64,000 nucleotides of DNA from Escherichia coli (GCF_001677475.2 NZ_CP015229.1); one strand, 5' to 3'. Positions 41,802-43,346 are shown, numbered from the stretch's first letter. Numbers and translations are program-made. The notes: a model not told the origin generated them from the letters alone.

Positions 41802-42044
41802 TTATGCAACCACTCGAAGTGTAGGTTTCTTATGTTGTGTAGGTTTATTGCCATTTCGCCACTCAGGAAACACCTGATCCATCATAACCGCGTTAGTTTC
41901 ATCAATCAGCTTTAGAGTCTTTCGTAATGCGGCGTTATCAGCTTTAAGCGATTTAATCTCTGAATCCATCTTAGCCATACGCTCTTTCATGTTGGTAATT
42001 TCTAACATCAGATTACCCAGAAATTCTTTGTTTTGATTAATCAT
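41802..42044 (-). CDS. small coiled-coil protein
   Basis: 80 aa; SD AGGGGTAATT upstream; heptad-rich (MKERMAKMDSEIKSLKADNAALRKTLKL). Confidence 0.5.
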   Translation of the reverse strand: MINQNKEFLGNLMLEITNMKERMAKMDSEIKSLKADNAALRKTLKLIDETNAVMMDQVFPEWRNGNKPTQHKKPTLRVVA

Positions 42045-42059
42045 AGAATTACCCCTCTA

Positions 42060-43046
42060 TTAAGCTGCGTATGCGTAGGCGCTGTAGTTGGTGTCGTAAA
42101 TCGCGTCATGTAATGCCATGTGTGCTTCGCGGATCTCGTCTTCGTTTACTTCAATCTCTTCTTGTTCTTCTTCGGTATCTTCCCAGCTAGTTTTGAATTT
42201 AGTCATAAAGTTGGTGCGCAGAGTTTCAAAGTTGGTAACTGGTGCGGATTCTGCTTCAACCGGAACCGGAACAACTACCGGATCAGCTTCTTGTTCTACT
42301 TCTTCACCGTTACCCCAGCGATAGTTAAGGAGTTCTTCATCAATGGATTTTTCTTCAACTGCTTTAACTTCAACCGCTGCTACTTCGAAAGTGGTTTCCT
42401 GTGCTGCCAGTTCAGCTTTCAGAGATGCGTTTTCAGCTTCCAGTTCAGCGATGCGTGCTTTCAGTGCTTCAACTTCGGAAGATTCAACCACTGCAACTTC
42501 TTCTTTAACTTCTTCAACTACTACCGGAGCAACTTCTTTCTGTGCTTCTTTTTTGCAGAAGAAGGAGGAAGTAACCTGTAATGCGTGGTTGTAGAAGGAA
42601 CCGCCTTTAGCGGTGTTAACAGTACCAGAAACATCTTTTACAGTGGATTCAGTAGCAACAGTACGGAAGCGTTTAGCAACTTCCTGGGTCTCTACGCCGT
42701 ATTCGTTGCGCTTGCTCTTGTGATGCATTACAGCACGGTAGCCGGAAGCAGTTTTAACAACAGCCAGATAGTAAGTTTCATCGGCTTTAACAGCACGAGC
42801 GAAGCAATAAACGGATTCACCTTCTACCAGTGTAGGTTTAACGTGACGTTTGTCGAAACGGTTAGTGATCTGCCATTCAGCACCGTCTTTGATGCCAGCA
42901 TTCTGACGCATTTCGGTCAGAGTCTTACCGGATACTACTTCAAAGGATTTGTCTTGTTTGCTTGCTTTACCTTCCATAACAGTAATGTTCAGTTTGCCGT
43001 TGGATTTAATAAACATGTTGAAGGTAATGCGCTTAGAATTTTTCAT
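42060..43046 (-). CDS. hypothetical protein with coiled coil and acidic C-terminal tail (function unknown)
   Basis: 328 aa; AGGAG SD; strongly translation-optimised codons; central EVEALKARIAELEAENASLKAELAAQE coiled coil; acidic tail. Confidence 0.6.
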   Translation of the reverse strand: MKNSKRITFNMFIKSNGKLNITVMEGKASKQDKSFEVVSGKTLTEMRQNAGIKDGAEWQITNRFDKRHVKPTLVEGESVYCFARAVKADETYYLAVVKTASGYRAVMHHKSKRNEYGVETQEVAKRFRTVATESTVKDVSGTVNTAKGGSFYNHALQVTSSFFCKKEAQKEVAPVVVEEVKEEVAVVESSEVEALKARIAELEAENASLKAELAAQETTFEVAAVEVKAVEEKSIDEELLNYRWGNGEEVEQEADPVVVPVPVEAESAPVTNFETLRTNFMTKFKTSWEDTEEEQEEIEVNEDEIREAHMALHDAIYDTNYSAYAYAA

Positions 43047-43163
43047 ATAAATACTCCTGAATACTCTGTGTTAGTTTTAATGTGTCATACTAAAAGCCTC
43101 CTTGCGCCAACAGGGAGGCTTTTTTATTTTTAAAGCCATCATATAATTCTCAGTGAAAGGTTA

Positions 43164-43346
43164 TTACCAGACGGTAGCTTCAATCTTCACTTTAATGTCA
43201 TACTTCTTTAAAAGTTTGTGGAAGGTTGATTGATCAATACCTTCACCTTTAAACCATTCACCCATCACTACATCAGGTGTCAGTTCAAAATAACGCTTTG
43301 CCATTTCTAAAACGATTTCACGAGTGAACTTAACAGGTCGTGCCAT
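43164..43346 (-). CDS. small basic protein, possible DNA-binding regulator
   Basis: 60 aa with a strong AGGAGG SD, adjacent to the repeat-rich non-coding hub. Confidence 0.5.
   Translation of the reverse strand: MARPVKFTREIVLEMAKRYFELTPDVVMGEWFKGEGIDQSTFHKLLKKYDIKVKIEATVW

Follow-up and report, generated by a model that had tools for sequence, protein, structure and literature searches.

Among the described systems closest to the locus reported here are the allelic O/ori types of phage lambda, the initiators of iteron plasmids (RepA, RepE, pi; the Rep_3 family), G38P of phage SPP1, repressor c of phage Mu and protein p6 of phage phi29. The locus is a gene for a 328-amino-acid (aa) protein, with direct repeats (iterons) upstream of it, in a stretch of 64,000 nucleotides from Escherichia coli (GCF_001677475.2, NZ_CP015229.1), referred to as the window. 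It lies in an inserted element which, judged from its sequence, is a truncated prophage. Comparison with related prophages gives a probability of roughly 0.5 that the 328-aa protein is an iteron-specific DNA-binding protein, acting as an origin-binding initiator or organiser.

Lambda O is an early-operon protein of ~300 aa, in which iteron specificity resides in the N-terminal half, which varies in step with the repeats between related phages, and the C-terminal half is a conserved partner-contact module; the 328-aa protein appears alike in each of these respects. Lambda O is turned over by ClpXP. The variable DNA-specificity half and conserved partner-contact half also match the modular logic of SPP1 G38P, and direct, helically phased iterons, a dimerising leucine-zipper element and probable autoregulation at an iteron-adjacent promoter are points of likeness with G38P and the Rep_3-type initiators. 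Mu repressor c is alike in domain order (N-terminal DNA-binding part, leucine-rich coiled coil and a tail possibly governing ClpXP sensitivity), and phi29 p6, to which the 328-aa protein may be alike, is a very abundant early DNA-binding protein which forms a phased complex, activates replication initiation and switches promoters.

The differences extend to every one of these systems. Unlike lambda O, the 328-aa protein has extreme codon bias, a leucine zipper and an acidic domain, and shows no sequence or fold similarity to O and no match to Phage_rep_O or any other Pfam family; its iterons number ~9, are direct and lie 0.8 kb upstream, outside the gene, whereas lambda has four inside the gene, and a P-like loader was not recognisable, the only partner being an 80-aa coiled-coil protein. 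Unlike the Rep_3-type initiators and G38P, it has no detected winged helix, its zipper is C-terminal to the putative DNA-binding part, and the element is integrated by a serine recombinase, plasmid copies not being found. No homology to Mu c was seen, the Mu operators do not form a nine-copy direct array and Mu c is not known to be codon-optimised to the degree of the 328-aa gene. Protein p6 is ~100 aa long, has little sequence specificity and acts at linear genome ends. The kind of function is known, while the protein family is an orphan, and the prophage family in which it occurs is undescribed; neither that prophage family nor the 328-aa protein was found described in literature searches.

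Pairing of N-domain allele and iteron sequence

The features on which the comparison depends are as follows (codon adaptation index, CAI).

42060–43046, minus strand: gene for the 328-aa orphan protein; CAI 0.706; two diverged homologues; no family match
42639–43046, minus strand: codons 1–136, hypervariable basic beta-rich subdomain (AlphaFold2, AF2, model), the putative determinant of iteron specificity; resemblance to the 313-aa allele starts only at residue 137
42399–42473, minus strand: codons 192–216, leucine zipper; d positions L195/L202/L209, a positions I199/N206/L213
42063–42239, minus strand: codons 270–328, acidic C-terminal domain (..ALHDAIYDTNYS..), common to the otherwise different 313-aa allele; (YA)nA tail
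43820–43997, minus strand: iteron array, in which TAGTGTAGG(TT) is repeated directly ~9 times, mostly with a phasing of 11 or 22 bp
41802–42044, minus strand: gene for the 80-aa coiled-coil partner; CAI 0.24; C-terminal PTLRVVA at 41805–41825
43164–43346, minus strand: 60-aa gene; CAI 0.36; alleles reassort independently of the iteron/N-domain pair

Seventy-four related loci were gathered with a TerL profile, and 33 related loci were compared for the cassette. Only about half of the close relatives that share the 60-aa, 156-aa, Rha, 85-aa, 200-aa and TerS genes have the 328-aa and 80-aa genes; the remainder carry in the same slot a different protein of 313–377 aa, with the same architecture and a CAI of 0.50–0.65. 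In all related loci compared the slot was filled by a protein of 313–377 aa with a basic N-domain, a leucine zipper, an acidic C-region and high codon bias, and the alternative slot proteins gave no match to a known family. The 5′ flank (TTGAC-TGAGAATTATATGATGG-CTTTAAAAAT, a GC hairpin, then GTATTTAT-ATG) was common to all alleles, which therefore places the mosaic boundary at the start codon.

The allele of the N-domain matched the iteron sequence in 32/32 loci, one-to-one:

MKNSKRITFN-type N-domain: iteron TAGTGTAGG, 14 loci
46%-identical relative of the MKNSKRITFN type: iteron TAGTGCAGG (one-base change), 1 locus
MLFSANFF-type N-domain: iteron TCAGGGGCAA, 15 loci
MKQNNFSITVYS-type N-domain: TCCCCG repeats, 2 loci

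Located between iterons and cassette, the 60-aa gene reassorts, its cluster 0 being found with both main alleles (6 and 12 loci), and the clusters of the 156-aa protein were found with all N-domain alleles. As the genes between reassort while the pairing persists, these data suggest a functional link of N-domain and iteron rather than mere linkage. Loci L032 and L008 have the N-domain and the iteron in common but differ in C-terminal domain and partner. Alignment of the 328- and 313-aa alleles was possible from residue 137 onward only (30% identity), and specificity therefore maps to residues 1–136. Where the partner has an N-terminal globular domain of its own (L024, L022), at least two distinct repeat families were present at the locus, not one.

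Within the window exact AGTGTAGG copies were concentrated in the array (eight copies, 43827–43990, versus 0.84 expected in 64 kb). Two extra exact copies, inverted, were located on the plus strand at 41818–41825 and 42829–42836, inside the 80-aa and 328-aa genes, and both encode K-P-T-L. These are probably coincidental, as L003 does not share the one in the 328-aa gene.

Codon usage, architecture and homology of the 328-aa protein

A first-pass annotation of this stretch had described a leftward operon of highly codon-optimised genes with strong Shine–Dalgarno sequences. The three open reading frames (ORFs) were found on one strand at the coordinates listed above, and good Shine–Dalgarno sequences precede all of them (AGGAGG, AGGAG and GAGGGG for the 60-, 328- and 80-aa ORFs, 7–8 nt 5′ of the ATG). 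A simple three-gene operon is uncertain because a conserved GC hairpin (43092–43123) separates the 60-aa and 328-aa genes, and codon optimisation was found for the 328-aa gene but not for its two neighbours. With the weights of the E. coli w table of Sharp & Li 1987, the CAI of the 328-aa gene was the highest among 51 non-overlapping ORFs in the window (median 0.30, z = 5.3). In 2000 resamplings of the protein with the codon usage of the element the mean CAI was 0.42 and the maximum 0.51, all below the value observed. Elsewhere in the element the protease–capsid fusion gave 0.525, the 156-aa early gene 0.473 and all remaining genes 0.20–0.43. The GC content at third codon positions (GC3) of the 328-aa gene was only 0.38, and the bias therefore reflects translationally optimal codon choice, not GC content. 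It was kept in the homologues, with a CAI of 0.70 at 65% identity and 0.58 at 42% identity. The product is presumably abundant, as judged from codon bias, which agrees with the annotation's picture of an unplaced, abundant product adjoining the control region.

This level of codon bias is also the starting point for reading the protein as an abundant architectural or segregation protein, which would form an iteron-nucleated higher-order complex that organises, compacts or positions phage DNA, after the manner of phi29 p6 or ParR/parC. Bias above that of the major capsid protein suggests that the protein is used stoichiometrically, not catalytically, the iterons of R1 parC have a phasing similar to the 11 bp seen here, and the coiled coil could support oligomerisation. 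A partition NTPase gene was absent, however, all of the 118 matching places in complete E. coli genomes were chromosomal (118/118; plasmid, 0), and the sites form a single short array instead of being spread genome-wide, the only two extra copies both being in coding sequence. An architectural role of this kind is improbable.

The charge of the 328-aa protein is divided between an N-domain with an isoelectric point (pI) of 9.8 and a net charge of +12 and a remainder with a pI of 4.1 and a net charge of −30, and the same split into a basic N-domain and an acidic remainder was seen in 5/6 alleles. The globular N-domain and acidic C-terminus proposed earlier are consistent with this, but the proposed long coiled coil proved to be a short leucine zipper of ~3.5 heptads. 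In one natural variant the zipper carries an exact 7-residue (one heptad) insertion. Within the 328-aa family alignment the N-domain was well conserved. An AF2 run on a 4-sequence alignment gave a moderate N-domain model (predicted local distance difference test, pLDDT, 59; predicted template modelling score, pTM, 0.62), in which residues 5–112 form a beta3-alpha2-beta3 arrangement with pLDDT 55–88; the lone full-length sequence was modelled poorly (pLDDT 45).

The C-terminus reads ..NYSAYAYAA, and the form in the family is ..NYS(AY)nAA with 2–5 YA repeats. Across 120 cluster representatives the YA repeat (42063–42086; hexanucleotide TACGCA) numbered 2–5 copies; one representative ends YVA and all the others YAA. 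An -AA ending was found in three diverged clusters, which is the form of an ssrA-like C-terminal degron (ClpXP C-motif 1; non-polar, -AA/-VA). As a sequence this tail resembles ssrA (..NYALAA); it and the tail of the partner, which has the -VA form (..TLRVVA), may be ClpXP degrons.

A homologue of known function was found by neither sequence nor predicted-fold comparison, in agreement with the earlier statement that no motif could be placed. Profile searches of Pfam, PHROGs, NCBIfam, PADLOC and Protein Data Bank (PDB) sequences gave no family match for the 328-aa protein beyond coiled-coil noise, and the same family scans of all early-region proteins and five alternative cassette alleles likewise returned coiled-coil noise only. 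A tblastn search of 50,697 phage records gave no match. A word-indexed search yielded ~200 clusters of the 328-aa protein, all >92% identical and from E. coli and Shigella, and an exhaustive HMMER scan of 1.84 billion representatives yielded only two real diverged homologues, both in syntenic prophages; a third match, an ankyrin-like repeat protein, was spurious. No winged-helix domain was detected, no known family of initiators showed homology in sequence or structure, and a helix-turn-helix or S24 autocleavage domain had no match in Pfam or NCBIfam, the predicted fold being that described above. In hhalign comparisons the 328-type N-domain was weakly similar to the 371-type (E = 8e-4) and the 337-type (E = 4e-3), and did not match the 313-type (E = 0.22). 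The 328-aa protein probably has a new fold.

The same data bear on a structural or assembly role (scaffold, decoration protein or head fibre), or that of a single-stranded DNA-binding protein (SSB) or DNA-mimic early protein; the annotation had named a scaffold and an SSB-like protein or recombination mediator. The codon bias is like that of structural genes, the tail is acidic, and PF06810 (phage scaffold) matched weakly over the coiled coil (E = 0.009). That match scored 16.4 bits against a cut-off of 35 bits and falls within the coiled coil, and the capsid gene already holds protease, linker and coat domains. TerL was 99% identical between phages whose cassette proteins differ entirely over the first ~135 residues, which a capsid-binding scaffold would not tolerate, and the scaffold was rejected. 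Neither an oligonucleotide/oligosaccharide-binding (OB) fold nor a Rad52-like fold was among the predicted-fold matches, and the tail ends ..YAYAA, not in a DDDIPF-like tip. Co-variation with double-stranded iterons is predicted by none of these roles; for this reason and for want of such folds the SSB-like and mediator proposals were rejected, and the decoration and DNA-mimic readings were rejected on the grounds given here. All roles in this group are accordingly held to be very improbable.

Promoter-like sites and the possible role of the iterons

The non-coding features of the locus are given below.

43743–43792, no strand assigned: overlapping divergent promoter-like sites; leftward TTGACA-17-TATACT (11/12), rightward ATCACA-17-TATAAT
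43092–43123, no strand assigned: conserved GC hairpin separating the 60-aa gene from the 328-aa gene; strong rightward (antisense) terminator, weak (U4) leftward
43126–43153, minus strand: 5′ flank CTGAGAATTATATGATGGCTTTAAAAAT, conserved with every cassette allele; resembles a promoter or regulatory element; no second copy in the window
41769–41794, no strand assigned: hairpin at the convergence with the TerS operon; terminator for rightward transcription
44100–44560, minus strand: conserved hairpin-rich non-coding region with a terminator-like end at 44123–44135

Measured from the leftward promoter the iteron array spans about −30 to −240, and measured from the rightward promoter it spans +40 to +220. 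A palindrome, TGTCA-N6-TGACA, overlaps the −35 of the leftward promoter-like site, the promoter segment co-varies with the N-domain/iteron allele, and an AT-rich stretch (GC 0.20–0.30) lies near the iterons at 43420–43540. The 5′ flank motif was also considered as a shared late-promoter motif, which was dropped because the motif is unique in the window.

An iteron-specific DNA-binding protein would act at this site as follows. The basic N-terminal subdomain (approximately residues 1–136) would recognise the phased direct repeats, the leucine zipper would dimerise the protein and might in addition engage the coiled coil of the 80-aa protein, and the acidic C-terminal domain would be the effector end, contacting a conserved phage or host factor. 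The near-consensus, putatively early leftward promoter would drive very high output of the protein, which would probably feed back on the overlapping divergent promoters beside the iterons. The charge of the N-domain fits DNA binding, and two properties of iteron-dependent initiators were found here, a phased direct array and co-variation of the specificity domain with the iterons. An origin-binding role is favoured because the repeats are direct, numerous and helically phased, because the phage has no other recognisable replication gene (no other prophage protein matched replication families in the family scans), because the variable specificity half and conserved effector half mirror lambda O and the ori types, and because TTGACA-17-TATACT with its −35 palindrome looks like a repressed early promoter.

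The position of the iterons beside overlapping divergent promoters, downstream of the rightward and upstream of the leftward, would also suit an immunity or switch regulator similar to Mu repressor c, which by binding the array would block rightward transcription and activate or autoregulate the leftward promoter, with allele-specific immunity as the outcome. The promoter segment co-varies as part of the same module, a CI-like repressor was not recognisable anywhere in the prophage in family scans, and allele diversification together with one heterotypic double lysogen (UTME-9) fits hetero-immunity. The 328-aa gene is intact in the defective window copy, and its ssrA-like end, with three diverged clusters ending AA, may be compared with control of the Mu repressor. 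The AA ending is not universal, however, as the 313-aa allele ends FSYCQ, and phage operators are usually few inverted repeats, whereas nine phased repeats in one orientation are more typical of origins or centromeres. A near-consensus promoter with its own palindromic operator looks repressed-early, not like a maintenance promoter, the 328-aa gene is far from the recombinase, and the ETEC1739 prophage remains in its host although its copy of the gene is apparently frameshifted. Such a regulator is the main alternative to an origin-binding role, but we regard it as rather unlikely.

Several observations weigh against an origin-binding initiator or organiser. Replication initiators are normally scarce and do not typically have a CAI as high as 0.71, and DnaA boxes (TTWTNCACA) were absent from the intergenic region (43350–44630). 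The co-varying promoter segment fits a transcriptional or immunity role equally well. The pairing in 32 loci represents only four or five independent allele classes, many of the loci being close relatives, and in the apparently intact ETEC1739 prophage the 328-aa gene is split in two (L001 14346–15342; ORFs of 177 and 146 aa), by either a frameshift or a sequencing error. The extreme codon bias, unlike that of a classical initiator, could reflect stoichiometric or architectural use, as in phi29 p6, or rapid turnover. Tentatively, the roles may be joined in one complex, present at capsid level or more, which would be both an iteron-nucleated origin organiser and an allele-specific determinant of incompatibility or immunity. 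The protein would then represent a previously unrecognised class, featuring a new beta-rich recognition domain, a zipper, an acidic effector, an ssrA-like (YA)nA tail and a PTLR(L/V)VA partner.

The truncated prophage and its early region

The window is chromosomal sequence, in which prpE is followed by codB, which is interrupted at ~39836–39865; an apparent resumption of codB, a piece assigned by length, was found at 62913. The insert carries TerS, the 80-, 328- and 60-aa genes, a non-coding region of ~1.3 kb, the 156-aa protein and Rha, as well as two small proteins read as helix-turn-helix proteins. It also carries a gpA-type TerL, a lambda-type portal, the protease–capsid fusion, head–tail proteins, a tail-fibre protein, IS3 and a large serine recombinase. 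A copy in ETEC1739 lies in ycdX and is ~35 kb long, with the gene order past the tail fibre being tail tube, tape-measure-sized protein, tail tip, endolysin-like gene and recombinase. Window positions 39867–56089 and 59924–62485 align to the ETEC1739 prophage, and ~16 kb between them is absent beside IS3 (58329–59482). The lost segment (window flanks 56089–59924) holds the tail tube, tape measure, tail tip and lysis genes of the intact prophage, and a 129-aa fragment resembling an endonuclease C-terminus (59549–59938) remains near the IS3-family element. Related IMG/VR contigs are mostly ~35 kb, like the ETEC1739 prophage. Read from sequence, the element belongs to a temperate siphophage of ~35 kb that encodes a large serine recombinase, the copy in the window being IS3-truncated.

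The annotation had taken the element for a satellite and suggested helper interference for the 328-aa protein. Genes for tail and lysis (tail tube, tape-measure-like protein, tail tip, endolysin-like gene) are present, with the serine recombinase, in intact relatives of ~35 kb, and the window copy has lost ~16 kb beside IS3, so that the satellite premise is unsupported; since the element is not a satellite, helper interference has no basis. A link to a T-even helper through Escherichia phage DCP80 (PQ671644.1; L004, L081) was dropped, as the record looks like an assembly chimera. It is 141 kb long, is classified as a T4-like Gaprivervirus, starts with a siphophage module of ~25 kb (TerL, portal and a 45%-identical protease–capsid fusion) and has rIIA twice, in opposite orientations.

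Insertion sites of the prophage family number at least two, both inside genes: codB (the window and strain 39EVA) and ycdX (ETEC1739 and L003). Copies in codB and ycdX were only ~81% identical in DNA sequence at the recombinase end (window 59924–62485), perhaps because their att specificities differ. In complete E. coli genomes (n = 5426) the 328-type was present in 17 and the 313-type in 35.

The 80-aa partner consists of a coiled coil and a basic tail with the PTLRVVA end. Partners of 80, 123, 333 and 363 aa all share an end of the form PTLR(L/V)VA, which was found nowhere else in the loci; with the common 313-aa allele the partner is absent. The 156-aa early protein (44630–45100, plus strand) ranks third in the window by CAI (0.47); its tail is acidic and rich in aromatic residues, and its alleles reassort independently. 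The 60-aa (43164–43346), 85-aa (46546–46803) and 200-aa (46806–47408) proteins have in common a module, G-I/V-S..T-F/Y-Y..LKKY-x-IK plus a beta strand, and an N-terminal RP-x-K/R-F; the module resembles a Hin/resolvase-type helix-turn-helix, with no profile match. The 60-aa protein may accordingly combine a Hin-like minor-groove arm with a helix-turn-helix, a reading from sequence to which profiles lend no support, and may be paralogous to parts of the 85-aa and 200-aa proteins.

In the leader of the 60-aa gene CCGCTTTAGCAATTCGTGCT occurs twice (43532–43566 and 43605–43639), with a core, CTTTAGCAATTCGTGCT, that is invariant even in the most diverged loci; a conserved regulator or a host factor probably acts at this repeat. 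The non-coding segment of ~430 nt at 44100–44560 is conserved across the phage family above its flanking proteins. It contains GC hairpins with 4-nt loops (GAAG, GUAG, CUAC), RNAalifold gave 17 base pairs with compensatory changes, and the control region including this segment had no match in Rfam. The segment is a candidate for an immunity or antisense RNA or other non-coding RNA, or for a single-strand initiation region of an origin.

The correction from satellite to truncated prophage leaves a finding about the 328-aa protein that is more specific than was first proposed. For the orphan with the strongest codon bias in the window, from a prophage family present in ~1% of complete E. coli genomes, comparison gives a concrete putative job, the specific binding of iterons. 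The protein may contain a new DNA-recognition domain, for which nature provides at least four or five protein–site pairs that could serve specificity studies or be used as orthogonal DNA-binding parts. The early region of ~7 kb, with its iterons, overlapping divergent promoters and structured non-coding segment, has no recognisable replication or repressor genes, and its control logic may therefore be unusual. If origin organisation and allele-specific immunity are indeed joined in one complex, the rapid modular exchange of the cassette together with iterons and promoters would be driven by competition among related prophages.

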